A stretch of 64,000 bases of DNA from a virus: the IMG/VR virus record IMGVR_UViG_3300025889_009691, positions 1-64,000 of that record. One strand, given 5' to 3'. The stretch's first letter is position 1, and each line of letters begins with the position of its first letter. Below the pieces are notes generated by a model. The model saw only the letters and a list, made by a program, of their open reading frames with translations. It searched no databases and was not told where the DNA came from. The position numbers and the translations under genes are program-made. Shown in pieces: positions 19,531 to 37,052 of the stretch.

Positions 19531-20306
19531 ACGCTTCCGACTGGAAGACTAAAACTTTATACACAGTCAGCTCTTTAGAAGACAGACTAAACTCAGAACT
19601 TGATAAAGTTTTTGACGATCAAGAGCAGGCTGTTCTAGATGAGTTAGATAGCGATGCTGTACAAGCTGCAATTGCTAGTGGCTCTGTTGCTTTAATTCTG
19701 TCTGCAATTCCTGTGGCGTTACTTACACCGTCAACTGTTGCGTTGTTAGCTTCTATGGCAGCCACGTATCGTAAAGCGGTTGAAGACAATATTGAAGAAG
19801 GATATGGCGCTCCTGTCTCTGAGCAAGTGTCAGAAGCAGCGACATCTGAACATTTAGCAGCAGTCAATAATTTTAACACAACCACGCAAGAAGAAGTTGC
19901 GGCTGCTTTAGTTACTGCTGCACAATTGACTGATGAGAATGATGGCGACGTTGATATCGCTTTAAAGATTGCTTTAGCCTATTCTTTGATAAAAGCTATT
20001 TTCAATAAACTCCGAACAAAGCGTCGAAAGTTGATTGTTGACGCTGCTGTTTTGGGTCCGTACAATCAAGGCTTGTATGATTCTGCAGTTGCGGAAGAGC
20101 AAAGAACGGGTCAAATTGTACAAAAACAGTGGGTGTCTTTAATGGATGAGCGGGTTAGGTCTGCTCATAGGCAGTTACATGGTGAAAAAGTTGCTGTTGG
20201 TACGCCGTTTTTTGTGAATGGTGTATCTATTCGATTCCCGAAAGACCCTTTGGCTCCGCCCGGTTTGACGATCAATTGTCGTTGTATTCTGCGCTTCAGC
20301 AGGTAG
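19485..20306 (+). CDS. MuF/gp7-like head morphogenesis domain, probably made as a portal fusion
   Basis: KQWVSLMDERVRSAHRQLHG...PF...FPKDP...INCRC; no good independent start or SD. Confidence 0.85.
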   Translation, partial: PFRTKTGAAGGPSLLNASDWKTKTLYTVSSLEDRLNSELDKVFDDQEQAVLDELDSDAVQAAIASGSVALILSAIPVALLTPSTVALLASMAATYRKAVEDNIEEGYGAPVSEQVSEAATSEHLAAVNNFNTTTQEEVAAALVTAAQLTDENDGDVDIALKIALAYSLIKAIFNKLRTKRRKLIVDAAVLGPYNQGLYDSAVAEEQRTGQIVQKQWVSLMDERVRSAHRQLHGEKVAVGTPFFVNGVSIRFPKDPLAPPGLTINCRCILRFSR

Positions 20307-20397: not shown

Positions 20398-21960
20398 ATG
20401 ACTGTTGCAGAACTAAATGACACCGAGCACGACACCCAATTCAAGGCTATTTCAGGCCAGATTGGTATCGACAAGGCTCAAGGCATCGTTGAAGCGTTTG
20501 TGTCAGGTATTGGAAATAAAGATTCTGTTGGCGACATCGTTATCGCAGGTGCGTTTAACGGGTCTCTGAAGCGACGCAAACCACGGGTTGTTTGGGGCCA
20601 CGATTGGAATCAGCCAATTGGTAAAGTTCTAGAGATTTACGAAGTCCCTAAGACTGATCCACGCCTGCCTGAAAAGATGAAGCAGGCTGGAGTTGGTGGC
20701 TTGTTTGCTAAGGTTCAGTTCAACCTTAATACTGAACGTGGTCGTGAAGCGTTTGCAAATGTTGCATTTTACGGCAATGAGCAAGAGTGGTCAATTGGTT
20801 ACAAGACAATTACTGCAGATTTTGATGCAGTTAAGCAAGCTAACATTCTCAAAGAGGTAGAGTTGTACGAAATTTCTCCTGTTCTGCATGGAGCGAATCA
20901 GTTGACCGCAACGATTTCTGTTAAAGATGATGAAAAGGGCAAGGCATCCAAAGGCTATTACGTTGAGGATGAAGATAAAGACGGCCCTGCTAGTACTATG
21001 GATGCAATGTCAGAGCGTTTGGGGCGAATGCTGTCTCAGGCTTTGCGTAAGCCCGTTCAGATTATTGAAATGGATGGAAATAACGTTGTATTCCAAACAG
21101 GCGAAGACATGACATGGAGCGCCACGATTTCTGTTGAAAATGGTCAGGTTCAGGTTGGTCGGCCTACACGTGTAAAGCCCACAACAAGCTACACCCCGGT
21201 AGGGGAGGAGGCACCCCCTTCAATGATGATTAAAGATACTGACGAAAAGAATGCTGAAGAGCCTGCGGGCGTGAGAGATGCTGATGATGAGCAGGGTTCG
21301 TGGGCTACCCCGGATATTGCTCTTGCTTGGGCTAAGACCTTTGGTTGTTCTGGTTATCACTCACATGGCGGCGGTTACATGCCGTGTGAAACGCATGAAG
21401 AGTATTTAGAAGCACTTAAAAAGTTTGATGGTAACGCTAACATCAACTCGCATAACAACTACCTTGCTGGGGTTGAGGTTGAAGAAGCAAAGGCTGCAGG
21501 GTGTTCTTGTGGGACCGAAGAAAAGGGCCATATGATGCCTAGCAAGAAGCCTGAGTATCTTAAGGACCCCATGGCTCTGCTACTTATGGCTTACAATGAG
21601 ATGCTGAAGCTTCGTGGTGCCGGTGAGTTGCGTGAGGCCACGTTGACTTTGATCGGTGCGGTCGAAGACTTCTTGACTGAAGCCCCGATGTCTCGTCCTG
21701 GCGAGCAGGGCGAGAAGGTGACTTCAGGCTTTGTTGTCCATGTCAAGTGTTCAGAGAAAGAAGCACTGGCTGTTAACGGCGCTATGTCTGGCCTGCCTGT
21801 GTTCTCGTTTAAGTCAGAAGATGGCGTTGATGTCCACTTTACGACAGAACTTGCAGAAGAAGAACTGATGGAAAAAGTCGCTGTGTCGCTTGCGGGATTA
21901 GCGTTTGAGCCTGAGGTAACAGTAACAAGACCGATTGACACCACCGAGGGTGTTCAGTAA
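20398..21960 (+). CDS. prohead protease (HK97 family) with long C-terminal extension
   Basis: DSVGD...GAF, WGHDWNQPIG, WSIGY, LYEISPVLHGAN. Confidence 0.92.
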   Translation: MTVAELNDTEHDTQFKAISGQIGIDKAQGIVEAFVSGIGNKDSVGDIVIAGAFNGSLKRRKPRVVWGHDWNQPIGKVLEIYEVPKTDPRLPEKMKQAGVGGLFAKVQFNLNTERGREAFANVAFYGNEQEWSIGYKTITADFDAVKQANILKEVELYEISPVLHGANQLTATISVKDDEKGKASKGYYVEDEDKDGPASTMDAMSERLGRMLSQALRKPVQIIEMDGNNVVFQTGEDMTWSATISVENGQVQVGRPTRVKPTTSYTPVGEEAPPSMMIKDTDEKNAEEPAGVRDADDEQGSWATPDIALAWAKTFGCSGYHSHGGGYMPCETHEEYLEALKKFDGNANINSHNNYLAGVEVEEAKAAGCSCGTEEKGHMMPSKKPEYLKDPMALLLMAYNEMLKLRGAGELREATLTLIGAVEDFLTEAPMSRPGEQGEKVTSGFVVHVKCSEKEALAVNGAMSGLPVFSFKSEDGVDVHFTTELAEEELMEKVAVSLAGLAFEPEVTVTRPIDTTEGVQ

Positions 21961-21990: not shown

Positions 21991-23817
21991 ATGAGTGATA
22001 ACCTTAATGAAGACCTTCAGAAGATGGAAGCTTTGAGCGAAGTCATCGATTCTGGGGAAAGCATGTCTGCCGCAGAGAAGGCTATGCATGATATGAAGAA
22101 AAACGCACCGTCTGTGTTTATGACTGACATTCGTTTCAAGGAGTCAATGGAAGTTGGCGATTTGCTTAGCGAAGAAGCTTTCATGTCTCTTGATGCTGAT
22201 GAGCAGAAGGGCTATGAGATGGTTCAGGTCATGGACGAGAAGAGCAAGGAGCCTATGGGCTGGGTGTTCCGTTTTAAGTCTGATGAAGATGATGAGGACG
22301 ATGCTGAAGACATTGTTGAAGAGGTCGTTGAAGATGCGGTTGAAGAATCCGTGGAAGAAAAGTCAGATGCTGATCCTATCTCAGAAAAGGCCGCTGCACT
22401 CATGTCGCAGATGCGTGCCCCTGATGATGAAAAGCCTTCAATGTTCCTTACCGATAGTCGTTTCAAGGAAATGATGGACGCTGGCGAGCTTGTTTCATCA
22501 GAAGACTATGACGTTTTAGACGAAGACGCTAAAGAAGCATTTGAGGCTGTTGATGTTTATGAAGAGGGCACCGGCAAGGGTTATGGTCGGCGCTATCGTC
22601 GTCGCAGCCCCCTTGAGTTGACAGCAATGCGTAAGGGTCAGGGTATGGATGAAAAGGCTGAAGACGGCATGGAAGACATGTTTGATTCGGAAGCTGAAGC
22701 TCTTGAGCGTGCGGCGGCGCTAGGTTGCCAGGGCGTTCATCGTGCAGGTGAAAAGTACATGCCTTGTGCAACCCACGATGATTGGATGAAGCTTAGCAAG
22801 CCTGCTGAGGCACCGGCTCCTACTCCGGCCCCTGCCCCCGCTCCGGCTGCGCCTGCTCCTGCTCCTGCTCCTGCTCCGGCTGCTGCCCCTGGTGGCATGA
22901 TGAAGTCAGAAGAAGAGTTCCTCTGTGGTTTCCAGCGCAAGTCAGTTGAGCAGCCTTGCGAGTTCTGCACAGGCGGCTGTGCTCCTGAAGATGGCCTTCC
23001 AGGGCTTGCTGACATTGAAAGTCAGGTCAAGTCAGCCTACGAGGGTTCTGAAATTATTGGCTCAGGCTACTCAGCCGGTGACGACGTATTCGTTGTCGAT
23101 GTCAAGCGGGCTGACGGTTCCTTTATTGAAGTGTTCCTGACCGGCGACGGCGAGGAGCTTGGTTGGCTGCGTTTGGATCAGAGCGCTATTGAAGGCAAGT
23201 CCGCTGAAGCTATTGAGATTGTTTCTAAGTCTGATGCTGAGGCTACGGCACGTGACGCTATTAGCGAGATGGGAATCAAGGCTGAGGTCATGAGCGTTAC
23301 TGTTGACATCTTCGCAGATGAAGATGTGTACGTGGTTGAGCTTGATGCTGAAGAGAAGAGCTACGACGTGTTCGTTGCTGCTGATGGCAAGGTGCTCGGC
23401 TATGATGAGTACGATTATGACGCTGAGGGTTCATATGAGCTTTCTGAAGAGGAAGAGATTAAGGCTATTGAGGCTGAACTTGAGATCAAGCGGATGTACT
23501 CTCGTGAGCAGCGTGAGGCGATGGCTGAGTCCGGTGAGGCTCTGCCTGATGGTTCGTTCCCGATTGCTGATGAGGCTGACCTAAGCAACGCTATCCAAGC
23601 GGTGGGTCGTGCGGCTGATCAAGAAGCTGCTAAGGCGCACATTATGAAGCGTGCTAAGGAACTGAAGTTGGAAGATATGATTCCGGCTGATTTTGCTAGC
23701 GGCGGCTCGCCTGCTCCTGCAGCCCCTGATGCTGATGCTGAAGAGAAGGTGCTAGACGAAGATATTCTTAAGGCGATGGAAGAGTTCAACAGCCTGTTGG
23801 AAGACGATTCTATCTGA
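21991..23817 (+). CDS. acidic multidomain head-module protein (internal repeat, Cys/His module, 2 PepSY-like domains, ALPDGSFPI domain)
   Basis: Motifs visible in the translation; own promoter TTGACA-17-TAAGAT and SD AGGAG. Confidence 0.7.
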   Translation: MSDNLNEDLQKMEALSEVIDSGESMSAAEKAMHDMKKNAPSVFMTDIRFKESMEVGDLLSEEAFMSLDADEQKGYEMVQVMDEKSKEPMGWVFRFKSDEDDEDDAEDIVEEVVEDAVEESVEEKSDADPISEKAAALMSQMRAPDDEKPSMFLTDSRFKEMMDAGELVSSEDYDVLDEDAKEAFEAVDVYEEGTGKGYGRRYRRRSPLELTAMRKGQGMDEKAEDGMEDMFDSEAEALERAAALGCQGVHRAGEKYMPCATHDDWMKLSKPAEAPAPTPAPAPAPAAPAPAPAPAPAAAPGGMMKSEEEFLCGFQRKSVEQPCEFCTGGCAPEDGLPGLADIESQVKSAYEGSEIIGSGYSAGDDVFVVDVKRADGSFIEVFLTGDGEELGWLRLDQSAIEGKSAEAIEIVSKSDAEATARDAISEMGIKAEVMSVTVDIFADEDVYVVELDAEEKSYDVFVAADGKVLGYDEYDYDAEGSYELSEEEEIKAIEAELEIKRMYSREQREAMAESGEALPDGSFPIADEADLSNAIQAVGRAADQEAAKAHIMKRAKELKLEDMIPADFASGGSPAPAAPDADAEEKVLDEDILKAMEEFNSLLEDDSI

Positions 23818-23838: not shown

Positions 23839-24018
23839 ATGCAGCCTAGCCAAGTAACGCAAAGGATTGCTGCTGCTAATCAAACTTTAGCAGAATTAGG
23901 AGCATATGCTGTTCTTGGCGACCACGTTAGAGATAACGAGGTAGAATACCTGTACAGAGATGGATTAGAGCATGTCTTTAGTCCCTTAGAAACCGCTGGG
24001 GATTCGGATGACGATTGA
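23839..24018 (+). CDS. small hypothetical protein (59 aa, not in ORF track; MQPSQVTQR...GDSDDD)
   Basis: SD AGGAGG before ATG 23839; overlaps the start of the giant ORF. Confidence 0.6.
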   Translation: MQPSQVTQRIAAANQTLAELGAYAVLGDHVRDNEVEYLYRDGLEHVFSPLETAGDSDDD

Positions 24019-27000
24019 GTTTAAAGCACCTGAGATTGGGCCAAACGCCGATGCTTTGACCAGCCTTACACGAGGGCGTGGTCCTCGTCGTGGCAATCTT
24101 GAGGACCTTCTCAAGTATTGGCGTCCGATTATGAAGAAGCCGGGTGGCTTCCGTCGTTGTGTTGTTATCCTTATGGATAAGCCGCAGTTTGGTGGTAAGC
24201 CTCAGCGTATTTGTGCTTGGCTTCACCACGAGTTGACTGGCAAGTGGCCCAACGAGGGCAAGGGTAAGCGTGGTAGAGGTAAGGGTAAGCGGAAGCGTCG
24301 TGGTCGTTCGGTGACTCGTCGTGTTCGGTCTGCGGGCAAGAAGTCTTTGACTGGTATTTCACCGTTAACTGAAGTTACTTCGTTGCGTATGACGATTCGT
24401 GAGTCTCGTGAGTTTGGTGGTATTCTTGTTCAGCCTATTGCTGGTCGTAAGAATGCTGTGGAGATGAAGGCTGCGATGTTCTTGCAGCATTCGGAGCGGC
24501 TGCCTTTGTTTGCTGGTAACGAGGTTAAGCGTGTTGGTGTGTTTGGTTCTTCTAGCCGTTTGGGTCAGGCTGCGCAGGCTGCGGGCAGTATTATTCTTCC
24601 GGGCGATTTGTCTGATATTCGTAGCCCTATCCGTTCTCAGATTTATGAAACGCTGACTCCTGGCGTTCCGAATATTCCTAATGCTCGTGGTGGTCGTATC
24701 CTGCGAAGCAGAGGTCGTGGTGCTCGTAATAAGTTCCGTTGTCCTCCAGGCTTTGAGAAGGGTGGTACGTTCACTAACTCCGAGTTTTCGACGTGTGGTG
24801 CCCAGATTTTGGGGATTGCTACTTCGGGTCCGGGTTCGCCCACCCCCGAGGCAAACAATAGACTTTCTCGTTTGGCGAACACTGCAGGTTTAGTTAATGA
24901 AATTGGTGATCTTCGCAACAACGACAGTGCTGTAGATATTATTCGTGCAGCTCAGATTCCGGCTGCCCCGAAGAAAGGTAGCCCGACCCGGGCAGAAACA
25001 TCTATTGATTTGGTGTTGACACGTTATGAGCAAGAAGATTTCCCAACTAAAGTTGTTCGCCGTGATGGTGTCATTTTAGAACCTGTTGTTTCAGTTGAAG
25101 CGCTTGGTAAACTTAACGAGTTTGATGACATGGCTGACGGTAGCCTTATTGAAAGATATGAGGCAGGTCAGATTGGTGCTTCTACTGTTCCTGCGTTTAG
25201 CACGAATTTGCGTAACGTGTTTGTTTCTATCCCTGATGCTGGCGCTGTTAAAATCAGTCGTGTTGGGGGAGAAATTTCTGATGCGGAACGGGCAGGGCTT
25301 CTTCGTTCGTTTGCTACTGGCATAAGCCGAAGCGCTGATTTGCCTGATCCTTCTGCTGCTGTTCGTGCGTGGGCTGACGGTTCTGATGGCCGGTTTACTG
25401 TTGAGTTTGGTGAAGTGACCGAGACCGGCTTTGCGATCGCTGAGGGCAAGAACGATTTGATTAAGGTCTCTACGGCTGGCGGCAAGACTGAAACAGTGCC
25501 TCGTTGGGTTTATGAAACGTTCTTGTCTCGTTCTGCGCCACGTCGTGCAAAAGATGCTCCGATTTATGAGATTGTTGCTGAGGAAGGTGCGGAAGAGAAG
25601 AGTGGTTCACCGTTTGCTTTCTCTCAGAAGTCAGCACCGGTTGCTACTGACTTTACTGATGTGCTTGATGCAAAGTACTATCACATGTCTGTCAATAGTA
25701 AGATTGAAGCGTTTACGTCTTTGACTGAGATTGATTTTAAGGCTCCTAGAGGTCGTGGTTTGGGTCGCCGGATCGGGCGTGGTGGTCGTGCTGTTGGTGG
25801 CCGTAGCCGTGCGGTGTTTGATGGTAACTTGGGTAGATATCGTTGTCCTCCTGGCACTCGTTATGGCGGTCGGTTCTCTAATCAGTTTGCTAGCAACTGT
25901 GGTTATTCTCTTCCACGTCAGATTGTTAATAACCTTGTTGATTTGGGTACTCGTCTTGAAGACGCTATGGAGAGGCGGCGTCGTCGCCGGTTGGACACGA
26001 GTCCGGGTGATGGTCGAAGCAATTTGAAGCCTGAGACGGCGGAGAAGCTTGATGATGCTATTCGTACTCTTGATGCTGCTACTGGTGATTTGGGTAGGGT
26101 GTTTGAGAAGACTGAGGGTGTTGAAGGCGGTAAGTTGGGTCGCACGCTTGGTGAGGCTCAGCGTGATGTTGATTTGACTCCTGAAGAGCGTCAGTTGCTT
26201 GAGGGTGAGGCTTTGGAGGCGGCGCTTAAGAATCTTCGTGATGTTATGAATGATCAGGATTTGGCTAACGCTAATTTGGATGAGATTCGTAAGGCGTATA
26301 AGGCTGTTGAGAAGGCTGCGAATACTGAGGCTGGTCGCTTGTCTGATAATCCTCCTCGTACTCCTGAGCAGCGGAGTCGGCAGGATGGTATTCTTGGTTT
26401 CTTGAGAGAGTTGATTTTGCGTTTCTTGGGTCTTTGGAATGAAGACTTTGAGCGTGAGCGTGCTGGTCGTCGTGATCGGGATGTTGTTCCGGGTGATGAG
26501 GGTGTGCCGGGTGGCCCTGGTGGTGGCGGTCCTCGTCGTCCTAGAGCGCCGGGTGTGCCGGGTGATGGTCCTGATAGTCGTGCTCCTGATGGTCGTACTC
26601 CTGATGGCCGCACTCCTGATCCTGATGATATTCCAGAGGCGCTTCAGCCCAAACCTGTTGGGGAGATGACTGATGGAGAGCTAGTTAGAGAATTCTTCAG
26701 ATTACGGCATGGTAGCCCGGGGCTTCTCATTCCGGGTCAGCGTGACGAAGAAATGGATAGACGTAGGCTTCGTGAAATCAACGCTGAGCTTCGCCGTAGA
26801 AATATTGACCCGTATAATCCTCAGACAATAACTTATACCCCTGCTGATGATGCTGACGATCCTGAAAAAATAATGGACGAGTTTGCACGAATTCTTCAAG
26901 AGTTCCGTGAGCGGGCTGAAGAATACAGAGTTTCTGGTGGCGGCAGAACCCTAGATTTTGTTGAGTCACTAGATGATGACGATTTAGATAAATACATCAA

Positions 27001-30000
27001 TGCGTTTGAAACTGCTGCTGAGGCTATGGCTGACAACCCACAGTTTGATGATATTCGTGCGGCTTTGGAGCGTTTACGGGCTGAAAGAGATCGCCGCAAC
27101 AGAAGCCGTAGTCTTGTTAATGCTAACTTGCGAGATCGTTTTGATCTTGAAACTGAAGAGGGCATGGCGGAAGCAATTCAGCATTTTTATGATCTAGCTG
27201 AGGAATATAACGCTAGAGACGCTATGACTGTAGAATTCATTCAACTTCTTAATGACGACGAAGTCGCTTTCTTCCAAGACGTATTTGATCAAGCGATTAT
27301 TCAGTTCCCTGAGGTAGCGCAGCGTGATAATGCGTTTATGAAGATTGCTGCCCGCTTAGCGGATGAACGAGATCGTCGTGACCGCCTAAACAAGGTGCCT
27401 GCCTCAGAGATTAAACCTGAAGATTATCAACGGGTCCTTGCTGAGATGGAAGCGCATATGGAGCGTTACAGGGTTGCTGGCGGCGGCATGACTCTTGACT
27501 TCTTTAATGCTATTTCTGATGATGATTTGATTAAGTATCGGCGTGCTGTCCGTGATGCTATAGATGCTAATGCGGTTCCGGCTGATGAAATCGGAAACTT
27601 GCAAGAGTTGCTGAAGCGTATGGATAACGAGTTTGATCGTCGTTTCCAAGGCCCAGGTAAGCGTCCTCGTATTGAGTCGGAAGAAAACAACATTAAGGAT
27701 AAGTTTGATCTAGACGAAAACGCTGATTTGTTTGCGGTTATTGCCGAGTTCGAGAAGCGGGCTGCAGACTTTAAGGTTTCTGGCGGCGGCATGACTCAAA
27801 ACATGTTAGAGACTTTGAGTGATGACGAACTTGACGTTTTCTTTAATGCTCATCTGCGGCTATCGGACCTTTACGCAGCTGAAGGCCGTGAGGGGTTAGA
27901 AGACCTTGAGGAACTTATTGGCCGTCTTGCGGCGGAGCGTGATCGTCGTAGACTGCAGCAGGCTGCTTTTGATCCGGGGTCCCGATCTGACCCTGATAGC
28001 CGTTCGTTGCGGAATGTAAATAATAGGTTCCCACGTAATGGTTTGCCGGGTCGTGCTTATTGGCGTGATGATGATTATAACGGTACTGATGCTGCTGAGT
28101 TGGATAGGCGTTTTGGTGGTTACTATGATGCTGATGGCAATTTGAATGATCGTGGCCGTGAGGTTAATCGTCGTCTTCGTCCTAGTGATCCTACTGATCC
28201 TAATGCTGGTGCCGGTGGTGCGCCGGAGCCGCCTGATCCGAATGATCCTGATGTTCTTGATCGGTTTAGTGATGATGAGCTTAGGGCGTTGATTGAGGCT
28301 GGCGATGATTTTCCTTTCAATCTTCAACGTATTTCTGATGATGACTTGGTTCGTCTGGATAATATTACCGGCGAGATGGCGAGAGAAAACATAAACGCTG
28401 GCAATCTGCGCAACTGGCGAGCGATCAGAGCCGAGTATAATGCTCTTGAGGATGGTACAAGAGACCCGAATCGTTTAGGTGTGAATGTTCCTGGGTCTGC
28501 GTCTAACAGGCCGCAGCGTCTGCCGGAATACAGAAATGACCCAGGCTTTAATACTCAGGGCCGGAGAGACCCTGTAAACATGCCTGAGCTTGATAATCTG
28601 ACTCCTGAGCAGATTGATAACGTGGCGGGTGCGGCTGTTCGTGAGCATCAAGAAGTTCTGCAATTGATTCTCAATGAGGTTGGTCCTCTTCAGGATGGTT
28701 GGAATGTTGCTGATCTTGAAGCGGCAGTTCGTAGGAGGATAGAGGAGGAGGACTTCCCTCAGGCCGGTGCTCGCCTACTTACGTTACGACTTCAAGCGTT
28801 CCGTGAGTTGAACCAAATGGTTGATGGTCTACGGTTTGTTCGTGAAGAAGAAAGTTTTGATGCAAATGATACTGCTGCTCGTGCGGCTCGTGATTTAGAT
28901 GTTTTGAAAGAGTATCTGCCATATCTTGCCCTAAATCGCCGTGAAGGTATTATGAATTTGCGTGATAACCCAGATGCGGCTCTTTCTCGAATTGATCCAG
29001 ACTTTGAGTTCCTTGTTGATGGTGCCCCTTCAGCTAATCGGGTAGTTGACGAACCAGAGGTTGATATTATATTTAACCGGGTTGATCCTGATTATGATGA
29101 TGCGCTTAATAGGTATGACGCTGACCCAGATCGCTTCCTTTCTGATCTTGATTTGTATTCTGCTGGAGACTTGTTAGACATGTTTGACGCTAGAGTCGGC
29201 GCTGGCGAAGTCGTTGATCCTAGCTTAAGAGCAGCATTAAAAGCCAGATATGCTGATTTGTTAAATATTAACGACGGCGATGTGGATGATCTGGCACGAC
29301 GCATGGCGAACATGGATGATGCGATGCTGGATGATATGAGTCCTCGTGATCGTGCACTCCGGCAAGCCCGTTTGCGTGCAGGCAATGCGGGCCGTCCTCC
29401 GTCTAGAGCGGCTGCAGAGCAGGCTGACCGGTTGCGTGCTGCTGATCAGCGTCGTGCTGATGCTGACAGAGGCGGCATTCCTTCAGGGGGTCCTTTCGAG
29501 TTTACGGAAGGAATGACTAGCCGTGAGCGGTTTGATGCTGTTATTGATGCAGCAGATGCTGATCCTGCGGGCGTGAGATTACAGGGGTACTTAGAAAATA
29601 TGTCTCCTGAAGAGTTTGGGCGTTTCGAACGTGAGTATGGTTCGTTATTGGCTTTTGCGGCTCAGCGTGACGCTAATGGCCTTTCTGAAGATGATGTTCA
29701 ACGGTATTTTGACTACTTAAGTGACGCTATGGACCGTGAGCGTGCTAGGCGTGGAAACATTAACCGTTTCCAGTTGGACAGAGATTTGCAGGATCGTTCC
29801 GATGAAGCTTTGGAAGCACACATAGAGCACTTACAAAACAGCAAAGCTTGGGGTCTTGACACGCTGGGTAGAGATGTTGATGAATTAGATGCTTTGATTA
29901 ATAGACTTCAGAGTGAGGTAGAAGCTAGAAGACTTAGGAACCTGGGTAGTGTTACTCCTGACCTTGTGGATCAGCCTCGGCAGGGCGATGCCGCTGTAAG

Positions 30001-33000
30001 GGTGAGACTTAGAGACGCAATGTTTGAAGATAATATGAATGCTGATAAGATACCCGGTGCGAAAGCTATGCTGAGAAACGAACTTATGCTGGCAGAAGCT
30101 TCAACTAATGAAATGTTGCGGTATAGAGAACGCATTCTAAACAGCACGAATCTTTCTGACAGTCAGAAAGATGATCTGATGCGATCTTGGAACCGTGCAA
30201 TGCGGATCAGAGGAGATAGAAGTTTTGAAAGAAACCTTCCTCTGAATGAAAGGTCAGTTGAGGCTATTGATCGTCATTTAGAGTATGTTCAAGAACGTCT
30301 TGACAACATGGACCCAAACATCATAGACGAAAATGGTCTTCTTACTTTACGTGAGGAGCTTCTTGATGGTCGTGCGGTTGCGTCGGCTCGGGCGAATCTT
30401 GGAGACGCTGTTGATAACAAGCCGCAGTTGTCTGATAGATGGCGTAAGGTGGGTAGATGGAACTTCCTCAAAGCTAGACGGCAGCGTCAGCAGAAGCGTG
30501 AGCAGAAGATTAAAGACATTGCTGAGCGTCGTTATGGTGATAGGGAAACGCAGCCGTGGGATATTGGCGGGCGTGATGGCCTGAGTGCGATGACTGATGC
30601 GCAAGTTGAATCACGAATCAGAGATGCGTTCTTGTTGGATACGGATCAGCCGGTTCAGGTTGGGTCTGTAGAGATTAATGGTAAGACGTACACGAAGCAG
30701 ATTATTCCCACGACTGATGGCCGTGGCGATGGTGTTTTCATTTCTCGTGACGGCCCTCGTGGAGATATTCTGCAGATTGATGTTCAGTCTAGTATGAAAT
30801 TCCAACTATTAGATTCTGATGGTAATGTTGTTGCTGAAGAAACTTATTCCGAAAACGATGGAGGGTTCCGGCTAGGCAGAATGTCTCGTACCATCACTTG
30901 GGATGCGCAAGGTGACGGTAAGGTTAAGCATAATTTGTTAGGTACGAGCCGTGTTATACAGTTTGAGGGACAAGACATTTCGTTTGCCGGTGGCGGTTTC
31001 ACTGAAGAGATGTTTAACAACAACTTGTTGTTCTATAGAAATATGGGTGTTAGCAAAGTTAAGGTTGGTGCTGTTGATGATGGCCGGGTTGTTTGGCCTC
31101 GCATTGGGTTTAGAGATGATAATCCTAACCATATTAGGAACCTTAACGAGGGTATGGTTGAGGTTTTGAAAGATTACAATGGCTATAAAGAAGCGAAACG
31201 TACAGGTATTGAACCTACGTTGAAGCAGCGTGCCGCAAAGGCTCTTATTCAGGATGATGTGAGGGCTGAACGTATTGAGGCTATGGTTGAGCCTTTATTG
31301 AACGTTGATGACCCAGTACGGGTGCTGGCTTCCATGGATGCTAGAGAAATTAATGAACTGCCAGACATGCATGATTTCATGTTGGCGTTGGAAGGCGAGG
31401 GTATTAGAAACTCTGTTGCGTTCCAGATGTTTAGAGGCGGTGGAGTTTACATCGGTAGAAACGTCGGTGACGACCCCGCTAACAATATTGGTGCTTTAGA
31501 TGGAGATATGGTTGATCAGTTGCTTGCTGATGACCCTGAGCTAGCAGGTTTGACGCTTCCCAACCCGTTTAGGGGCACCACGTTCAGTGACGGTACTTGG
31601 GATATTACAGATATTTTGAGTGATGCTGACGGCGATCCACGTCAGGTAACACCTGATTTGATTGATCCTTATGATCGTCCTCCAGAGCCGTCGATTCCTT
31701 CGATTCCTTCGGTACCTTCAGGACCTACTCCTCCTCCTCGTCAGAGCGACGCCAGACCGAATCAGAAATTAGACCCGAACTTTGATAGGGGCGAGCAGCG
31801 TCCGCTTCCAGCGGTTCCTGTGGGGGCGAATGGTATTGAGTCTGTTGATCAAGGTGCTGAGTGGATGAGAGATGGTAATAATGATGTTTCTGGTGTTCCT
31901 GATGAGTTCCTTAATCCTGTGGTTCTGGCGGTGTCTGATATTGGAGAAGACCGTTTAGGTCAGTATTCAAATGAGATGCTTGAAGAGTTGGTTGAAGAGT
32001 CTTTGGATGATTTGCCTTTTGATGTTACTCGTTTGTCTGATAATGACTTACAGCGGCTTGTGGGAGTAGTTGATCGTTTGTACGGTCAGAACGGTTCAGG
32101 GTATAGACATGGGCAAGCGATTCGTGATGAACAAAACCGTGTCTTGCGACGTGACGACCGTGAACCAAATGCAAGGTTTGAAATGTTGGTTCCTGGGATG
32201 GGCATGGATGACGGTGGGGGTGTCAATAACAGAGGTAATGCAATAAATGGTGCGCAGCTTATAGTAGATACTGCTACTGGTCAGATATTTATGATTAAGT
32301 TTAATGATGGGCGTTCATATGGTCGTGACGAAGACGGTAACGAACTAGTTGGCCGTGCGTTGATGATTCGTCTGGGCTTTGTTCAAGGGCAGATGAGGTT
32401 AGATGGGCCTGCAAATCCAAACGCTGCTAACCGAGACCCGTGGGATGATCCTGCTATTAACCCCGCTCGTGGCTTGATGGGTGAGGCTTTGCAGAATTAC
32501 CTTCCTGAAGGCGCTACCGATATTATGATAGGTAGACGGAACCCGGGACAGTATGATTTCTCTAATGAGAACACTCTAGACGATGCAACTCACATGATGC
32601 TGGGTGACGCTTTGTTGTTTAACAGTGATAGGCATGGTAGCAACTGGCTTCAGTACACGGATCGTGACGGAAATGTTAGACTTGTTCCTATTGACATGGG
32701 CCTGACTTTGGGTGGCCGTGACGGAGAAGATGGGACTGATAATGACTTCTTTGGGGTTGAGTACCGTGATCCACGGACGGGTGACCTCGTAAGACTTAGC
32801 CCTGAAGAACAATTTGCTGCTCGTGCCGCTAATAGCAGAGGTCCCCGTTTAAGTGGCGATCTTTATAGTCAACTTGCAGCTGCTTCAGCATCTGATCGGG
32901 CCGCTGTTGCGGCATCGTTTGATCGTGCCCTTGAAAGATTGCGGGCGGCTCAGAGTGCGGAAGATATGGAAAAGGTAATTGGCGATATTGTTGGTGCGCA

Positions 33001-33163
33001 CGGTAACCTTGATAGCGATGGGTGGAAGCGATCTCAGGAGATGTTCTTAGAACGGTACGGCTGGTTAATGGAAACAGATTATACCGGAGAAGAACTTATG
33101 GACCTAGTTTTGTTTGGCAATTACAGAGGTATGCCTCAACGCCAGAGTAACGTTGGACTTTAG
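24008..33163 (+). CDS. giant 3051-aa multidomain protein, putative virion internal/effector protein with GNAT-like and C-terminal HipA/PI3-PI4-kinase-like domains
   Basis: Uninterrupted ORF inside the head module; FMIK...E...GDALLFNSDRHGSNWL...LVPIDMG kinase motifs; GGGF...FYRNMGV...VWPRIGF GNAT-like motif. Confidence 0.75.
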   Translation: MTIEFKAPEIGPNADALTSLTRGRGPRRGNLEDLLKYWRPIMKKPGGFRRCVVILMDKPQFGGKPQRICAWLHHELTGKWPNEGKGKRGRGKGKRKRRGRSVTRRVRSAGKKSLTGISPLTEVTSLRMTIRESREFGGILVQPIAGRKNAVEMKAAMFLQHSERLPLFAGNEVKRVGVFGSSSRLGQAAQAAGSIILPGDLSDIRSPIRSQIYETLTPGVPNIPNARGGRILRSRGRGARNKFRCPPGFEKGGTFTNSEFSTCGAQILGIATSGPGSPTPEANNRLSRLANTAGLVNEIGDLRNNDSAVDIIRAAQIPAAPKKGSPTRAETSIDLVLTRYEQEDFPTKVVRRDGVILEPVVSVEALGKLNEFDDMADGSLIERYEAGQIGASTVPAFSTNLRNVFVSIPDAGAVKISRVGGEISDAERAGLLRSFATGISRSADLPDPSAAVRAWADGSDGRFTVEFGEVTETGFAIAEGKNDLIKVSTAGGKTETVPRWVYETFLSRSAPRRAKDAPIYEIVAEEGAEEKSGSPFAFSQKSAPVATDFTDVLDAKYYHMSVNSKIEAFTSLTEIDFKAPRGRGLGRRIGRGGRAVGGRSRAVFDGNLGRYRCPPGTRYGGRFSNQFASNCGYSLPRQIVNNLVDLGTRLEDAMERRRRRRLDTSPGDGRSNLKPETAEKLDDAIRTLDAATGDLGRVFEKTEGVEGGKLGRTLGEAQRDVDLTPEERQLLEGEALEAALKNLRDVMNDQDLANANLDEIRKAYKAVEKAANTEAGRLSDNPPRTPEQRSRQDGILGFLRELILRFLGLWNEDFERERAGRRDRDVVPGDEGVPGGPGGGGPRRPRAPGVPGDGPDSRAPDGRTPDGRTPDPDDIPEALQPKPVGEMTDGELVREFFRLRHGSPGLLIPGQRDEEMDRRRLREINAELRRRNIDPYNPQTITYTPADDADDPEKIMDEFARILQEFRERAEEYRVSGGGRTLDFVESLDDDDLDKYINAFETAAEAMADNPQFDDIRAALERLRAERDRRNRSRSLVNANLRDRFDLETEEGMAEAIQHFYDLAEEYNARDAMTVEFIQLLNDDEVAFFQDVFDQAIIQFPEVAQRDNAFMKIAARLADERDRRDRLNKVPASEIKPEDYQRVLAEMEAHMERYRVAGGGMTLDFFNAISDDDLIKYRRAVRDAIDANAVPADEIGNLQELLKRMDNEFDRRFQGPGKRPRIESEENNIKDKFDLDENADLFAVIAEFEKRAADFKVSGGGMTQNMLETLSDDELDVFFNAHLRLSDLYAAEGREGLEDLEELIGRLAAERDRRRLQQAAFDPGSRSDPDSRSLRNVNNRFPRNGLPGRAYWRDDDYNGTDAAELDRRFGGYYDADGNLNDRGREVNRRLRPSDPTDPNAGAGGAPEPPDPNDPDVLDRFSDDELRALIEAGDDFPFNLQRISDDDLVRLDNITGEMARENINAGNLRNWRAIRAEYNALEDGTRDPNRLGVNVPGSASNRPQRLPEYRNDPGFNTQGRRDPVNMPELDNLTPEQIDNVAGAAVREHQEVLQLILNEVGPLQDGWNVADLEAAVRRRIEEEDFPQAGARLLTLRLQAFRELNQMVDGLRFVREEESFDANDTAARAARDLDVLKEYLPYLALNRREGIMNLRDNPDAALSRIDPDFEFLVDGAPSANRVVDEPEVDIIFNRVDPDYDDALNRYDADPDRFLSDLDLYSAGDLLDMFDARVGAGEVVDPSLRAALKARYADLLNINDGDVDDLARRMANMDDAMLDDMSPRDRALRQARLRAGNAGRPPSRAAAEQADRLRAADQRRADADRGGIPSGGPFEFTEGMTSRERFDAVIDAADADPAGVRLQGYLENMSPEEFGRFEREYGSLLAFAAQRDANGLSEDDVQRYFDYLSDAMDRERARRGNINRFQLDRDLQDRSDEALEAHIEHLQNSKAWGLDTLGRDVDELDALINRLQSEVEARRLRNLGSVTPDLVDQPRQGDAAVRVRLRDAMFEDNMNADKIPGAKAMLRNELMLAEASTNEMLRYRERILNSTNLSDSQKDDLMRSWNRAMRIRGDRSFERNLPLNERSVEAIDRHLEYVQERLDNMDPNIIDENGLLTLREELLDGRAVASARANLGDAVDNKPQLSDRWRKVGRWNFLKARRQRQQKREQKIKDIAERRYGDRETQPWDIGGRDGLSAMTDAQVESRIRDAFLLDTDQPVQVGSVEINGKTYTKQIIPTTDGRGDGVFISRDGPRGDILQIDVQSSMKFQLLDSDGNVVAEETYSENDGGFRLGRMSRTITWDAQGDGKVKHNLLGTSRVIQFEGQDISFAGGGFTEEMFNNNLLFYRNMGVSKVKVGAVDDGRVVWPRIGFRDDNPNHIRNLNEGMVEVLKDYNGYKEAKRTGIEPTLKQRAAKALIQDDVRAERIEAMVEPLLNVDDPVRVLASMDAREINELPDMHDFMLALEGEGIRNSVAFQMFRGGGVYIGRNVGDDPANNIGALDGDMVDQLLADDPELAGLTLPNPFRGTTFSDGTWDITDILSDADGDPRQVTPDLIDPYDRPPEPSIPSIPSVPSGPTPPPRQSDARPNQKLDPNFDRGEQRPLPAVPVGANGIESVDQGAEWMRDGNNDVSGVPDEFLNPVVLAVSDIGEDRLGQYSNEMLEELVEESLDDLPFDVTRLSDNDLQRLVGVVDRLYGQNGSGYRHGQAIRDEQNRVLRRDDREPNARFEMLVPGMGMDDGGGVNNRGNAINGAQLIVDTATGQIFMIKFNDGRSYGRDEDGNELVGRALMIRLGFVQGQMRLDGPANPNAANRDPWDDPAINPARGLMGEALQNYLPEGATDIMIGRRNPGQYDFSNENTLDDATHMMLGDALLFNSDRHGSNWLQYTDRDGNVRLVPIDMGLTLGGRDGEDGTDNDFFGVEYRDPRTGDLVRLSPEEQFAARAANSRGPRLSGDLYSQLAAASASDRAAVAASFDRALERLRAAQSAEDMEKVIGDIVGAHGNLDSDGWKRSQEMFLERYGWLMETDYTGEELMDLVLFGNYRGMPQRQSNVGL

Positions 33164-33219
33164 CGTTTGTTGAGTACAGAAGTTTTGCTATTTTCAGAAG
33201 ATTAAGGTAGACTAACAAC

Positions 33220-33456
33220 ATGAAAAAATTTGGATTTTATGACTTAGACAACACTCTTGAAGGGACTGTTACTGAAACACCTGACGGCCTTGTTGCGGAA
33301 AATGTAGATAACCCGAAGTTTAAAGAGTTTATAGATTTTTTAATTGAATCTGATGGCGGGCAAGCTAGGACTGTAAGACAACTCACACGATCAGGGTTCT
33401 CATACACAAGTATTAGAGAAATTCGAGATAAGCCTAAAGGTGGTGCAGCAACATGA
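33220..33456 (+). CDS. small protein after the giant ORF, putative immunity/partner
   Basis: Own promoter TTGCTA-17-TAGACT with leaderless ATG. Confidence 0.6.
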   Translation: MKKFGFYDLDNTLEGTVTETPDGLVAENVDNPKFKEFIDFLIESDGGQARTVRQLTRSGFSYTSIREIRDKPKGGAAT

Positions 33457-34070
33457 TTAAACACTACATTTTAACGAAAAACGCTACGATGCTGCTTACC
33501 GTTTCTAGTCTTAACTCTGTAGAGTTTTTTGTTAAGCGTGGCTTTGAAGAAGAGGCAGCCGAACTTGAACTAGAGATGAGTATTCGGGCTACCCGTGAGC
33601 CTGATACTGACATGTATACGCCCACAAGAATTAAGCGACGTTTTCCAGATGCTATTGAAGTAGATTCAGCTAAGTTTGAAGATGCTCGCAAAAAAGTTGA
33701 GCAGTTTAACGCTGATTATGATGATAATGTTGCTGAGCTTGAAGCTATGTCTTTAGAAGACTTAAAAACTTATATCTCCACGGCTCCTGCTAGAATGCCG
33801 AAACTAGTGAACTATAAGCAACTTAACGAGTTGTGGCAGGTGTTGTATGCTAGTAGTGAATCAGGGTTTATGGCTATTGATGAAGAGGACAGAGAAGACG
33901 AAGAAGTTAGAGAAGATATTCATGCGTTGTATACGTTGTTGAAAGATGCTGAGATTACTAACGACAACTCTTCGATTAAAGAAGTTTTGAAATTAGCGAA
34001 GTTTGTTTCTCCTGATGCTATAGGTGTTACTTTTGAGGCAATTGAGCCGGAGGCTGAGGCTGATGGCTAA
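33453..34070 (+). CDS. acidic hypothetical protein
   Basis: 205-aa ORF coupled to the previous gene. Confidence 0.7.
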   Translation: MIKHYILTKNATMLLTVSSLNSVEFFVKRGFEEEAAELELEMSIRATREPDTDMYTPTRIKRRFPDAIEVDSAKFEDARKKVEQFNADYDDNVAELEAMSLEDLKTYISTAPARMPKLVNYKQLNELWQVLYASSESGFMAIDEEDREDEEVREDIHALYTLLKDAEITNDNSSIKEVLKLAKFVSPDAIGVTFEAIEPEAEADG

Positions 34071-35577
34071 GGACCCTTTAGAAGGACAGACAGTACCCAC
34101 GAAAGAAATGGCGGAAAACCTATCCGACATTTTAGGCTGTACGGGTGCTCACAAAGTCGGTGATGACGCTTGGGGTCCTTGCGAGTCCGCTGAAGATTTG
34201 CAGCAGCTTATCAAGCTAGGTAATCCTGCTTTTCGTGAATGGAAAGAACGGCAGGGAAAGAAAACTGGCAGTAAAGAAATGCTGCGGTTGAAAGCCGCTA
34301 AAGGAAAGAGCGTGTTTTCTTCTCGGGCTGAAGCGGAGCAGGCTGCTGTCAAGTTAGGTTGTTTTGGGGCGCATCAAACTGCTCAAGGCAAGTGGGCACC
34401 TTGTGCTACACCTGAAGAGCGTAATGCTGCCCAAGGTAACGGCGGCAATGGGTCTGCGAGAGTTATTCGTGCTCAGCGGCCTGCCCGCAGAACTGTAACT
34501 AATGAGCGTAGGTGGGAGAATCTGCGTGAGCGTGGCCCACGTGGTATTGAAACTCTTCCCGGTGGCGGGCTTGTTTCTGGCAAGGCAGGTGTTTCGGATT
34601 CTTTTAAGCCGACTGCTGGTATGGTGTCGGAGGCTAAGAAGGGTTTGGAGTGGCGTAAAGAGTTTGGTCGTGGCGGCACTATGGTTGGTGTTGCTCGTGC
34701 TCGTGATATTGCGAACGGGAAGAACTTGCCGTATCGTACTGTGAAGCGGGTTAAGGCTTATTTTGATCGTCATCAGAGCGATTCAAAAGCTGGGGGTTAC
34801 CGTCCGGGCGAGAAGGGGTTTCCTTCTAATGGGCGCATTGCTTGGGCTTTGTGGGGTGGCGATGCCGGTTATACTTGGGCGAAGGCTATTGTTCGTCGTG
34901 TAGAGGGCGGCGAGAAGACGACGTTTGACACTATTGAGGAAAAGCGGTTCTATACGCAGAAGCGTCGGGAAGAGTACGCTAAGCGGGGTTGGGCGCTTCC
35001 TGACGGGTCGTATCCGATTAGAGATGTTGGTGATTTGCGGAACGCTATCCAAGCTTACGGTTTAGGTAAAGATAGAGAGGCCGCTAAGCGTCACATTATG
35101 AAACGTGCCCGTGCTTTGGGTAGGACTGAGTTGATTCCAGATAATTGGAAAGTTCGTGAGAAGGCTGCTAGAAAGTATGGGCCGAATGATCCGAAGACTC
35201 CTGCTAAACCGTCTGAACGTATTAGCGGTTCACGTCGAAACAAGCCGGGTACTGCTGCAAATACTCGTGGGGGGATTAAACTTTCGGCTGCGGTTGAAAA
35301 GTCTTTGAAAGAAAAGGTTAAGACTCACAACGAGAAGATGACGAAACGGAATAAAGATAGCCGTAAAGTTACGCTCGGCATGTTAAAAGCTGTGTGGCGA
35401 AGAGGCGCTGGAGCGTTTTCGCAGACTCATCGCCCGAAGATGGGGCGGCAGCAATGGGCTATGGGCCGTGTCAATGCGTTTCTTAAGTTAACGTCTAGCG
35501 GAAAACCATCAAATCCGAAGTATACAACCGACAACGACTTGCTTCCTAAAGGTCATCCACGGTCTACTCGCAAGTAG
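34063..35577 (+). CDS. basic multidomain head-module protein
   Basis: Two GCxGAH...W.PC modules, AWALWGGDAG domain, ALPDGSYPI domain, WAMGRVNAFL domain. Confidence 0.72.
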   Translation: MAKDPLEGQTVPTKEMAENLSDILGCTGAHKVGDDAWGPCESAEDLQQLIKLGNPAFREWKERQGKKTGSKEMLRLKAAKGKSVFSSRAEAEQAAVKLGCFGAHQTAQGKWAPCATPEERNAAQGNGGNGSARVIRAQRPARRTVTNERRWENLRERGPRGIETLPGGGLVSGKAGVSDSFKPTAGMVSEAKKGLEWRKEFGRGGTMVGVARARDIANGKNLPYRTVKRVKAYFDRHQSDSKAGGYRPGEKGFPSNGRIAWALWGGDAGYTWAKAIVRRVEGGEKTTFDTIEEKRFYTQKRREEYAKRGWALPDGSYPIRDVGDLRNAIQAYGLGKDREAAKRHIMKRARALGRTELIPDNWKVREKAARKYGPNDPKTPAKPSERISGSRRNKPGTAANTRGGIKLSAAVEKSLKEKVKTHNEKMTKRNKDSRKVTLGMLKAVWRRGAGAFSQTHRPKMGRQQWAMGRVNAFLKLTSSGKPSNPKYTTDNDLLPKGHPRSTRK

Positions 35578-35765: not shown

Positions 35766-37052
35766 ATGAGTTTTGATGAAAGCCGACTCAACGAGCTGAA
35801 GTCTGCTCTTACCCAAAAGATGGATGAGCAGAAGCAGATCGCTGATTCGATGCAATTTGAGGGCACAACCCTCATCGCTGATGACGAAAAGAAGTCAGCA
35901 TTCCAGAATAACATGACCCAGATTCGTGAGATCAAGGGTCTTATTGAGGACATGAGCACTCTTCGTGACGTGTCCGCTTGGTCTTCAGAGGCCGAGTACA
36001 AGTCAGTTGCTGCTGAGGTTGCTGCTGGCGTTGAGTCAGAGGTTTCTCGTCACCGTTCAGTCGGTGATGCGTTCCTTAACTCAGAGGAGTTCAAGTCACT
36101 TCAGGGTGGCAAGGCTGGCGTAAACATGACCTCTCCGTTCATGGCCAAGTCGCTTCAGCAGAAGGACCTTTACTCAGGTCTTCCTACTGGCACTCCTGAC
36201 GCTTTCGGCGCTATTGAGCGTGACGGTATCGTCCCGATTGCTCAGCGTCGTAGCCGTGTGCGTGACCTTTTCCCGGCACGTACCACCAACTCAGCGGTTG
36301 TTGAGTACTTCCGTCAGACCGGCTTCACGAACAACGCTTCAGTTGTTCCTGAGTACTCGTCAGGCAACTTCGGTGCCAAGCCTCAGTCAACGATGACCTT
36401 CGTTGGTGAGCAGGCTCCGGTGCGGACGATTGCTCACTGGGAAGCCGCTCACCGTAACGTTCTTGCCGATGAGCCGCAGCTGCGTTCAATCATCGACAAC
36501 GAGCTTCTTTACGGTCTTCGTCTGACCGAGGATGCCCAGATTCTTTCCGGTGCTGGCACTGGTGAGGACCTTACTGGTATTCTCAACACCACTGACATCC
36601 AGACCTACGCATGGTCTGATGGCGCAACTTCACCTGTTGCTGACACCAAGGCCGATGCTCTCCGTCGTGCGGCTACTCTGGCATACCTTGCCTACTACGA
36701 GCCGACCGGCATCATCGTCCACCCGTCAGACTGGGAAGACATTGAGCTTACCAAGAACTCACAGGGCACGTACCTTCTTGCCATGTCAGTTGCTGGTGGC
36801 GCTGAGTCACGTGTCTGGCGTATCCCCGTCATTGACACTCCGGCCATCGCTGAGGGTACCGCTCTTGTCGGTGCGTTCGGTACTGGCGCTCAGCTGTACG
36901 ACCGTGAGGCTGCTTCAATCCGTATTTCGGAACAGCACTCAGACTTCTTCGTCCGCAACGCCATCGTGGTGCTTGCTGAAGAGCGTCTTGCCCTCGCTGT
37001 CAAGCGTCCCGAGGCGTTTGTGAAGGTCACCTTCGACGCCGAACCGAGCTGA
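35766..37052 (+). CDS. major capsid protein (HK97 fold) with N-terminal delta/scaffold domain
   Basis: N-terminal coiled coil; RDLFP, VRTIAHW, EDAQILSG, FVRNAIVVLAEERLALAVKRPEAFV; strong codon bias and SD. Confidence 0.95.
   Translation: MSFDESRLNELKSALTQKMDEQKQIADSMQFEGTTLIADDEKKSAFQNNMTQIREIKGLIEDMSTLRDVSAWSSEAEYKSVAAEVAAGVESEVSRHRSVGDAFLNSEEFKSLQGGKAGVNMTSPFMAKSLQQKDLYSGLPTGTPDAFGAIERDGIVPIAQRRSRVRDLFPARTTNSAVVEYFRQTGFTNNASVVPEYSSGNFGAKPQSTMTFVGEQAPVRTIAHWEAAHRNVLADEPQLRSIIDNELLYGLRLTEDAQILSGAGTGEDLTGILNTTDIQTYAWSDGATSPVADTKADALRRAATLAYLAYYEPTGIIVHPSDWEDIELTKNSQGTYLLAMSVAGGAESRVWRIPVIDTPAIAEGTALVGAFGTGAQLYDREAASIRISEQHSDFFVRNAIVVLAEERLALAVKRPEAFVKVTFDAEPS

Follow-up and report, generated by a model that had tools for sequence, protein, structure and literature searches.

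A giant head-module protein of an uncultured marine myovirus ends in an atypical kinase that has been exchanged together with a small downstream gene

What is the role of a protein of 3051 amino acids (aa) that ends in a kinase and is encoded between the prohead protease and major capsid genes of a phage? The question is raised by IMG/VR virus record IMGVR_UViG_3300025889_009691 (90,291 bp, rated 61% complete), the first 64 kb of which, positions 1 to 64,000, were analysed and are called the window below. The source is an uncultured marine phage; a tail sheath gene lies at 47712, and the phage is therefore a myovirus. The giant open reading frame (ORF) had been noticed in a preliminary description made from the letters of the window, and its place in the interval between the protease and capsid genes was confirmed by the head genes that Pfam and PHROGs recognise around it.

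We propose that the giant protein is a kinase effector that is packaged in the phage head and injected, and that orf78, the small gene directly behind it, encodes the cognate partner and probable inhibitor of the kinase. We give this explanation, taken as a whole, an even chance of being correct, and its parts are graded separately below.

The first part of the answer concerns the kinase itself. An AlphaFold2 model built from a 35-member alignment has a predicted local distance difference test (pLDDT) score of around 90 in the kinase core. A Foldseek search of this model against the PDB returned kinases only, with a probability of 1.00, the first being CtkA (E = 3.7e-5), followed by PI3K, HipA, CotH and actin-fragmin kinase. 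The top matches in VIA-align were all atypical kinases, with Z values of 11-15 over 210-270 residues: CotH (Z = 14.8, 257 residues, root mean square deviation 4.2), PI4K II-alpha (13.8), CtkA (13.3), and HipA and HipT (both about 12). Since the values for CotH, PI4K, CtkA and HipA are so close, no single family was chosen. According to the model, the C-terminus of the giant protein is a bilobal kinase fold of the PI3K/PI4K-HipA-CotH type with an intact set of catalytic motifs, and the HipA/PI3K-like kinase of the preliminary description is thus upheld by structure (leading Z values of 13-15) as well as by motif conservation.

The kinase family was collected with HMMER from 1.84 billion representative proteins. 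The domain is carried by 49 clusters, nearly always at the C-terminus, in proteins of 300-4900 aa. In the 35-sequence alignment D2874 is invariant, and K2764, D2867, N2872, R2875, H2876, N2879, P2894 and D2896 are conserved in at least 90% of the sequences; these residues make up the ATP-binding lysine (K2764, in the motif IK), the DRH..N catalytic loop and the PID metal-binding motif, which is the equivalent of DFG. Pfam PI3_PI4_kinase is matched at E <= 1e-3 by 15 of the 35 members (best E = 1.8e-8), HipA_2 by two and Fam20C by another count of two among the same 35. A PDB sequence search with the kinase domain gave nothing significant, and IMG/VR scans with the kinase alone and with the family member P0035 gave no match.

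The structural neighbours of the kinase among viral proteins point to the phage head. The best matches of the model in BFVD include two MuF "phage head morphogenesis" proteins, each longer than 1000 aa, a portal protein of the HK97 type (1201 aa), ADP-ribosyltransferase (ART) proteins, one of them from Mycobacterium phage Onyinye, and large proteins of Gordonia phages and of haloarchaeal tailed viruses. The kinase fold has therefore been attached repeatedly to proteins that are built into heads.

The second part concerns the link between the kinase and orf78. The full context of the giant gene was found in two related contigs, L002 and L003, with the same gene order as in the window. The proteins flanking the giant in L002 are 95-99% identical to those of the window, and the giant protein itself is about 95% identical up to residue ~2550; identity falls to 26-60% in its last ~470 aa, is 37-38% for the orf78 products, and rises again to 98% for the products of the following gene, orf205. 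The same steps are seen in the DNA, where identity is about 95% up to about position 31740, 45-70% from ~31750 to ~33470, and 97-100% from ~33500. The left breakpoint (~31740-31760) falls in the proline-rich linker ahead of the kinase module and the right one at the start of orf205. The L002 allele keeps the catalytic motifs and belongs to the same kinase family.

Read from these alignments, one recombination event has swapped exactly the kinase module and orf78 for a diverged allele. Since the breakpoints enclose the kinase and orf78, and orf205 is 98% identical on the far side, orf78 and not orf205 is indicated as the cognate partner. The preliminary description had offered both downstream genes as candidates; the first was exchanged with the kinase, and the second, orthologues of which are present in all relatives, lies outside the cassette. 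The joint exchange resembles the pattern of a toxin domain that travels with its cognate immunity gene.

Orthologues of orf78 are found directly behind the terminal kinase in the window, in L002, L011 and L014, in L003 and in L016, and a short contig (L015) holds orf78 and orf205 and does not contain the kinase. In the distant contigs L017-L019, positional orthologues of 94-95 aa share the N-terminal pattern. All orthologues are acidic, with isoelectric points (pI) of 4.1-5.0. Searches of Pfam and PHROGs gave no helix-turn-helix (HTH) family match for orf78, for orf205 or for the 59-aa ORF that overlaps the start of the giant gene.

A relation of orf78 to HipS was considered as well. The ESM Atlas gave a lead, with TM of 0.50-0.51 to Couple_hipA proteins and the HipA N-terminus, standing amid LolB, methyltransferase and other rows. 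Pfam at E <= 10 and a PDB profile search did not support this reading, and hhalign against an alignment of the HipA N-domain (E. coli hipA and relatives) returned a probability of 0.8%; the relation is kept as a weak lead.

Of the promoter and leaderless start that had been ascribed to orf78, the string and the layout are present, and the promoter-like site is conserved in diverged relatives. The window, L002, L003 and L015 share the arrangement TTGCTA-17-TAGACT-6-ATG, and variants of the -10 element lie 6 nt before the ATG in L016 (TATACT), L017 (TAAAAT) and L018 (TTGCTA...TAAGGT), those of L017 and L018 being of the TANNNT type. The element has been retained although the surrounding DNA is merely 45-70% identical. 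A leaderless gene with its own promoter inside a late operon suggests that the timing of orf78 differs from that of the giant gene. As a separate observation, the same leaderless layout, in the form TTGACN-17/18-TAGACT-6-ATG, is found at window positions 47454-47492 and 62044-62082; one of these TTGACN sites follows a 955-aa ORF (44618-47485), for which Pfam gave no ART domain and a weak DUF7178 match.

The third part of the answer is the remainder of the giant protein. In metagenome assemblies from JGI, ENA, Logan, Tara and NCBI, with contigs of up to 137 kb, we found 62 proteins of 1.7-4.8 thousand aa that share the N-terminal 800 aa at 43-95% identity and differ in their C-terminal halves. 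Full-length relatives are those of L002 (3067 aa), L003 and P0002 (2796 aa, identical to each other), and P0051-P0106. The cargo of most proteins with this N-terminal module is a conserved middle domain (MID) followed by the terminal kinase. In a further group NUDIX is combined with a kinase-like region that is internal and seems degenerate, one protein has a 2'-5' RNA ligase (2H), and P0091-P0099, of 3.5-4.8 thousand aa, have no kinase and carry sigma-70 region 4, HTH_3 (XRE-type) and polyA-polymerase/nucleotidyltransferase-type domains. These sigma-factor-bearing giants are candidate injected transcription factors.

The cargo domains also move separately. Expressed as fractions, the identity between window and L002 is 0.98 for the N-terminal module, 0.92 for MID and 0.50 for the kinase, and between window and P0051 it is 0.95, 0.65 and 0.86, respectively; MID and the kinase therefore recombine independently among close relatives. 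Between L017 and L018, identity is 71-96% over the first 1100 aa and 21-53% over the remainder, with no sharp cassette. A constant N-terminus with interchangeable enzymatic cargo in a head context is, on these comparisons, the definition of a polyvalent protein: the family has at least two effector-type domains in varying architecture, and it stands in a portal-terminase head context. The preliminary description had named MuF-linked toxins and large polyvalent proteins as known products of head modules; the polyvalent, cargo-swapping architecture stands, and the MuF link does not, the giant having no MuF domain and the MuF gene of the phage being a separate one at 19713.

The N-terminal module begins with a strongly basic stretch (26 Lys and Arg within aa 1-100; pI 11.6 for aa 1-130), as had been noted before. 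Its sole named match is phrog_6439, at aa 43-90. Both RCPPG...GG.F.N...CG motifs of the preliminary description could be located, and the type of the second occurs also near the N-terminus of many other, shorter kinase-bearing proteins. In L017 (3422-5821) an insertion before the second RCPPG motif repeats the block GS..R.GQAA...GSII.PGD.S...SPIRS that precedes the first; the N-terminal module is therefore taken to be an ancient internal duplication. We consider the module a putative head-incorporation or delivery part.

Between the N-terminal module and the cargo, the D/R-rich helical repeats that had been noted before turned out to be four tandem units of ~90 aa (z = 9-22). A fifth unit, at aa 1405-1490, recurs just ahead of the kinase at aa 2655-2725 (z = 11). 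The repeats were detected by windowed pairwise local alignment against shuffles; self-BLAST gave none. A further motif, NRFP.NGLPGRAYWRDD...ELDRRFG.YYD...LNDRGR.VNRRL, lies at aa 1327-1390 of the giant (window 27986-28177) and is 48-67% identical in the otherwise unrelated, shorter kinase-bearing proteins P0022, P0025 and P0032.

MID accompanies the kinase in most members of the family and has the invariant pattern GGG-helix-strand...W.R.GF; among its invariant residues are a GGG loop, Y, DG, W and R. The GNAT-like segment of the preliminary description falls within this conserved domain, and the GNAT fold itself received weak support. The MID model has a pLDDT of 79; its Foldseek matches are weak (best E = 6e-3; ICL2 acetyl-CoA-binding domain, NatD and HAT1), and in VIA against 48,161 PDB representatives GNAT acetyltransferases make up the majority of the top 50 rows, at Z <= 5.8, which is below the reliable level of the tool. 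The Atlas search gave a sub-threshold score of 0.88 to a cluster with 20% Acetyltransf_1 members. No Pfam GNAT match was found in 10 members, the PDB sequence and profile searches with MID were negative, and a near-length search with it gave no match. MID is possibly an acyltransferase of the GNAT type.

From these data the following course of events can be proposed. The giant protein would be made late and incorporated into proheads by its conserved basic N-terminal module of ~800 aa, the helical repeats serving as long spacers between this module and the two cargo domains, and it might be trimmed by the S78 protease. It would then enter the next host, probably an actinobacterium, along with the ejected DNA, and there the kinase would phosphorylate host proteins ahead of phage gene expression, either for takeover or for disarming defences, with the MID enzyme acting too. 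orf78 would be expressed as a leaderless messenger RNA from a sigma-70-like promoter of its own, and its product, most likely a stoichiometric inhibitor of the cognate kinase, would silence new kinase in the producing cell, turn off the injected kinase once early expression begins, or both. In our estimation the giant is probably packaged and injected, as its gene context and architecture suggest; with slightly less confidence, we expect that the kinase acts on host proteins; and the identification of orf78 as the inhibitor, drawn from the co-exchange, is tentative and falls somewhat short of an even chance. A stricter version, a virion-borne and time-gated toxin-antitoxin-like pair in which the kinase arrives free of inhibitor and acts immediately on host targets, and orf78, transcribed later from its host-type leaderless promoter, shuts it off and keeps new kinase silent until packaging, seems to us improbable.

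Several results weigh against the proposed explanation. With respect to the kinase, the domain of the window scores 17.6 bits against PI3_PI4_kinase (PF00454; E = 0.0037), below the gathering threshold of 27.1; given this score and the matches of the relatives, the homology is indirect, and the domain is filed as PI3K/HipA-like and not as a member of PF00454. The fold does not reveal whether the substrate is a protein, a lipid or a small molecule. With respect to delivery, the N-terminal module has no Pfam match, including none to a known head-targeting or MuF domain; over nine segments of the giant, Pfam gave solely the weak PI3_PI4_kinase match and on no segment PF04233. A tblastn search with the N-terminal 800 aa or with the kinase module found no match, and thus no cultured relative, among 50,697 GenBank phages, and packaging is a prediction. 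With respect to orf78, the generic promoter and terminator scan of the region found no enrichment over shuffles, and the promoter argument therefore rests on conservation and not on a consensus match. The joint swap is one event, which physical linkage could explain by itself; orf78 is absent behind the terminal-kinase giant of L020 and L021 and behind the internal-kinase giants of L006-L010; and Pfam, PHROGs, PDB profile and hhalign searches found for it no antitoxin, immunity or other family match.

Several of the points on orf78 also favour a different role for this gene. The giant would still be a delivered polyvalent effector, and orf78 might serve its C-terminal module as a chaperone or packaging adaptor, act as a co-factor of the kinase or be its substrate, or be an unrelated small early gene that hitch-hiked in a single recombination event. 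The kinase and orf78 are linked by a single independent swap, and the other pairs of relatives add no information on their co-variation, all being uniformly diverged by about 50%. This alternative fits less well with breakpoints that coincide with a domain linker and with the start of the next gene, or with a position behind the kinase that is kept in lineages whose N-terminal modules are merely ~50% identical. The conserved promoter implies regulation distinct from that of the late operon, and orf78 is small and acidic, like many proteinaceous enzyme inhibitors. We regard this alternative as rather unlikely, and as the best of those considered.

A structural or assembly protein, acting as a core, a scaffold or an organiser of DNA, would also be expected in this place between the protease and capsid genes; it could have long charged helical repeats and a very basic N-terminus able to bind DNA, and its domains could act in morphogenesis, for example by phosphorylating head proteins in the manner of CotH, the spore coat protein kinase that is the top VIA match. 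CotH is, however, not singled out, the Z values of PI4K, CtkA and HipA lying within 2-3 units of it. The capsid protein has its own N-terminal region of ~150 aa before the Phage_capsid domain, hence a scaffold is already provided; the NUDIX, RNA ligase and sigma-factor/HTH cargo of the relatives makes little sense for assembly; and evolution and recombination are much faster in the cargo half than in the surrounding structural genes. An assembly role is therefore distinctly unlikely in our view.

Least probable of all is a late-acting kinase that is not packaged and that modifies host or envelope components in the producing cell, for instance for superinfection exclusion: it would suit a late-gene position such as that in Gratiaviridae (PMC8008677) and the fact that packaging of the giant is a prediction, but an 800-aa module common to unrelated cargo is hard to explain without a role in delivery or incorporation, the kinase-fold fusions to MuF and portal proteins elsewhere point to the capsid, and with no integrase in the window a lytic myovirus would presumably gain little from late exclusion.

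The delivered kinase with a cognate partner can be compared with six kinds of known system. Polyvalent proteins have been predicted to be packaged in the capsid and delivered at invasion, with kinase and GNAT among their domains (Iyer, Burroughs, Anand, de Souza, Aravind 2017, PMC5512222). The giant resembles them as a huge multi-effector polypeptide in a head-gene context with variable architecture and predicted capsid delivery. It differs in that its kinase is of the PI3K/HipA/CotH type, whereas theirs belongs to a distinct Ser/Thr/Tyr-kinase clade without the C-terminal subdomain, from phages of Verrucomicrobia and Bacteroidetes; its N-terminal 800-aa module is without a named domain; and its kinase moves together with a small cognate gene, whereas the term 'immunity protein' does not occur in that paper.

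In the MuF polymorphic toxins (Jamet et al. 2017, PMC5576092), as in the giant, a conserved N-terminus is joined to a variable enzymatic C-terminus that is swapped with a downstream cognate gene. The giant lacks the MuF domain, is about 3-6 times larger and has more than one cargo domain. The swap was between alleles of one kinase family and not between unrelated toxin folds, and, unlike the temperate phages that carry MuF toxins, the phage has no sign of a temperate lifestyle within the window.

With HipA and HipBST (PMC6581861, PMC10627512, PMC9325769) the giant shares an atypical kinase fold, the catalytic Asp-x-x-His..Asn and the metal-binding Asp, and in both the kinase may be under the control of a small protein from a gene of its own. 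In HipBST the antitoxin HipS is a split-off N-terminal subdomain of HipA (PMC6581861, PMC10627512). Neither the giant nor orf78 has a Couple_hipA or HipA_C match in Pfam, the giant has no HTH antitoxin (HipB) beside it, its partner is encoded downstream and not upstream, and its kinase forms the C-terminal end of a phage protein of 3051 aa and is not a free toxin. If orf78 truly were a HipS-like split-off subdomain, the pair would be a phage-delivered counterpart of HipBST within an unnamed family of giant head proteins.

In the Gratiaviridae gut phages a HipA-family kinase gene lies between the portal and major capsid genes, as does the kinase domain of the giant, and superinfection exclusion was the favoured role (Benler et al. 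2021, PMC8008677). Those phages belong to another lineage and host group, their kinase was not described as part of a giant multidomain protein with a co-varying partner, and no similarity to it was detectable in the cultured and GenBank phage set. The T7 kinase gp0.7, a takeover and broad anti-defence factor that targets host proteins as soon as infection begins (PMC13645617), provides a functional precedent, yet it is expressed early, belongs to a different kinase family and is not indicated in that paper to be packaged, whereas early action of the giant would come from delivery in the virion. P1 DarB and the N4 virion RNA polymerase, each longer than 2000 aa, travel in the phage head and are injected to act ahead of phage gene expression (PMC5512222); these have been shown experimentally in virions and have no sequence or domain similarity to the giant, whose presence in virions is predicted.

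The features of the locus are collected in Table 1. From the terminase onwards the gene order is TerL, portal, MuF, S78 protease, orf608, 59-aa ORF, giant, orf78, orf205, orf517 and major capsid protein, so that the interval between protease and capsid holds, besides the giant, two ORFs upstream (orf608 and the 59-aa ORF) and three downstream (orf78, orf205 and orf517). This synteny is retained around the giant in L002, L003, L006-L010 and L017-L021.

Table 1. Genes, domains and sequence elements of the giant-protein locus, in window coordinates
Feature	Position	Strand	Remarks
Large terminase TerL	16374-17717	-	Pfam/PHROGs
Portal	17890-19530		Pfam/PHROGs
Phage_Mu_F protein (orf197, 197 aa)	19713-20306		PF04233, E 8.8e-11
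Peptidase_S78 prohead protease	20398-21960		Pfam/PHROGs
orf608 (608-aa protein)	21991-23817		between protease and giant gene
Acidic 59-aa ORF	23839..24018	+	11-nt overlap with start of giant; C-terminal end GDSDDD
Giant coding sequence (P0001)	24008..33163	+	ATG start, 3051 aa; polyvalent head-module protein
N-terminal module, aa 1-800	24008..26407	+	family-defining; Arg/Lys-rich head at aa 1-130
RCPPG..GG.F..C motif 1, aa 244-263	24737..24796	+	invariant block
RCPPG..GG.F..C motif 2, aa 612-631	25841..25900	+	preceded by FKAP/RG-rich stretch
Four tandem ~90-aa acidic/Arg-rich helical repeats, aa 950-1316	26855..27955	+	shuffle z 9-22
MID, aa 2135-2541	30410..31630	+	conserved; contains GNAT-like segment 30880-31110
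Pro-rich linker, aa 2542-2590	31631..31777	+	19 Pro in aa 2501-2600
Exchanged cassette	31750..33470	+	kinase module (aa ~2582-3051), intergenic promoter and orf78
Kinase core, aa 2742-3037	32231..33118	+	PI3K/PI4K-HipA-CotH-type protein-kinase-like fold
Catalytic loop NSDRHGSN (2872-2879) and metal-binding PIDMG (2894-2898)	32621..32701	+
Promoter-like TTGCTA-17 nt-TAGACT-6 nt-ATG	TTGCTA 33185-33190; TAGACT 33208-33213; ATG 33220	+	leaderless layout
orf78	33220..33456	+	small acidic protein, pI 5.0; directly downstream of giant gene
orf205	33453..34070	+	conserved head-module gene, outside variable cassette
orf517	34024-35577		between orf205 and capsid gene
HK97-type major capsid protein, Phage_capsid	35766-37052		Pfam/PHROGs

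The 59-aa ORF is 42-98% identical and keeps its position in all relatives examined (L002-L006, L010, L017 and L018). With its acidic product and its overlap with the giant gene, it may be translationally coupled to that gene and encode a chaperone or partner for the basic N-terminal module.

Proteases of the HK97 type cleave after lysine, as at K103/S104 of HK97 gp5. In the capsid protein of the window, AK/SL at residues 126/127 precedes the Phage_capsid domain and is reminiscent of the HK97 K/S maturation site, and the giant protein has [ED]FK/AP at residues 6/7 and 578/579, with K6..P8 invariant across all N-terminal modules. The AK/SL and [ED]FK/AP sequences are candidate sites of the S78 protease.

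Some further features of the head region can be added. The short Cys/His motif DUF3721 (G-C-x-G-x-H ... M/A-P-C) is shared by the protease, in its C-terminal half, by orf608 (one copy) and by orf517 (two copies), and orf608 and orf517 also have in common the motif ALPDGS[FY]PI...AI.A.G...HI.KRA; the two motifs may be a common head-targeting or metal-binding signature. A gene for a class II (B12-dependent) ribonucleotide reductase (37959-39980, + strand) lies amid the structural genes, two genes past the capsid gene.

The best cultured relatives of the capsid protein are Gordonia and Brevibacterium phages, at 46-47% identity, and leaderless TANNNT promoters fit Actinomycetota; the host is thus probably actinobacterial. 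Genome scans do not establish it: kinase patterns gave no match, and the N-terminal module matched only contigs of metagenome-assembled genomes from five unrelated phyla, which are most likely mis-binned phage DNA and give no host.

Polyvalent proteins delivered from the capsid were already known, as were HipA/PI3K-like kinases in phage head modules. What is new is the unnamed N-terminal module that defines a large family in uncultured phages, the pairing of a PI3K/HipA/CotH-type kinase with MID, and a small partner gene that has its own promoter and was swapped along with the kinase module, by which the themes of polyvalent proteins and of polymorphic toxins are joined. A co-travelling partner gene is a feature of polymorphic toxins that has not been described for polyvalent proteins.

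Proteins that are injected with phage DNA act before the phage genes are read, hence they decide the first minutes of infection; few of them are known, and almost none from the abundant uncultured marine phages. If the proposed explanation is true, the giant protein would represent a natural scaffold for delivering proteins into hosts of the Actinomycetota type, the kinase and orf78 would form a new kinase/inhibitor pair, and the system would make it possible to test directly whether takeover or anti-defence by phosphorylation, as known from the T7 kinase, can be delivered as a pre-made protein.

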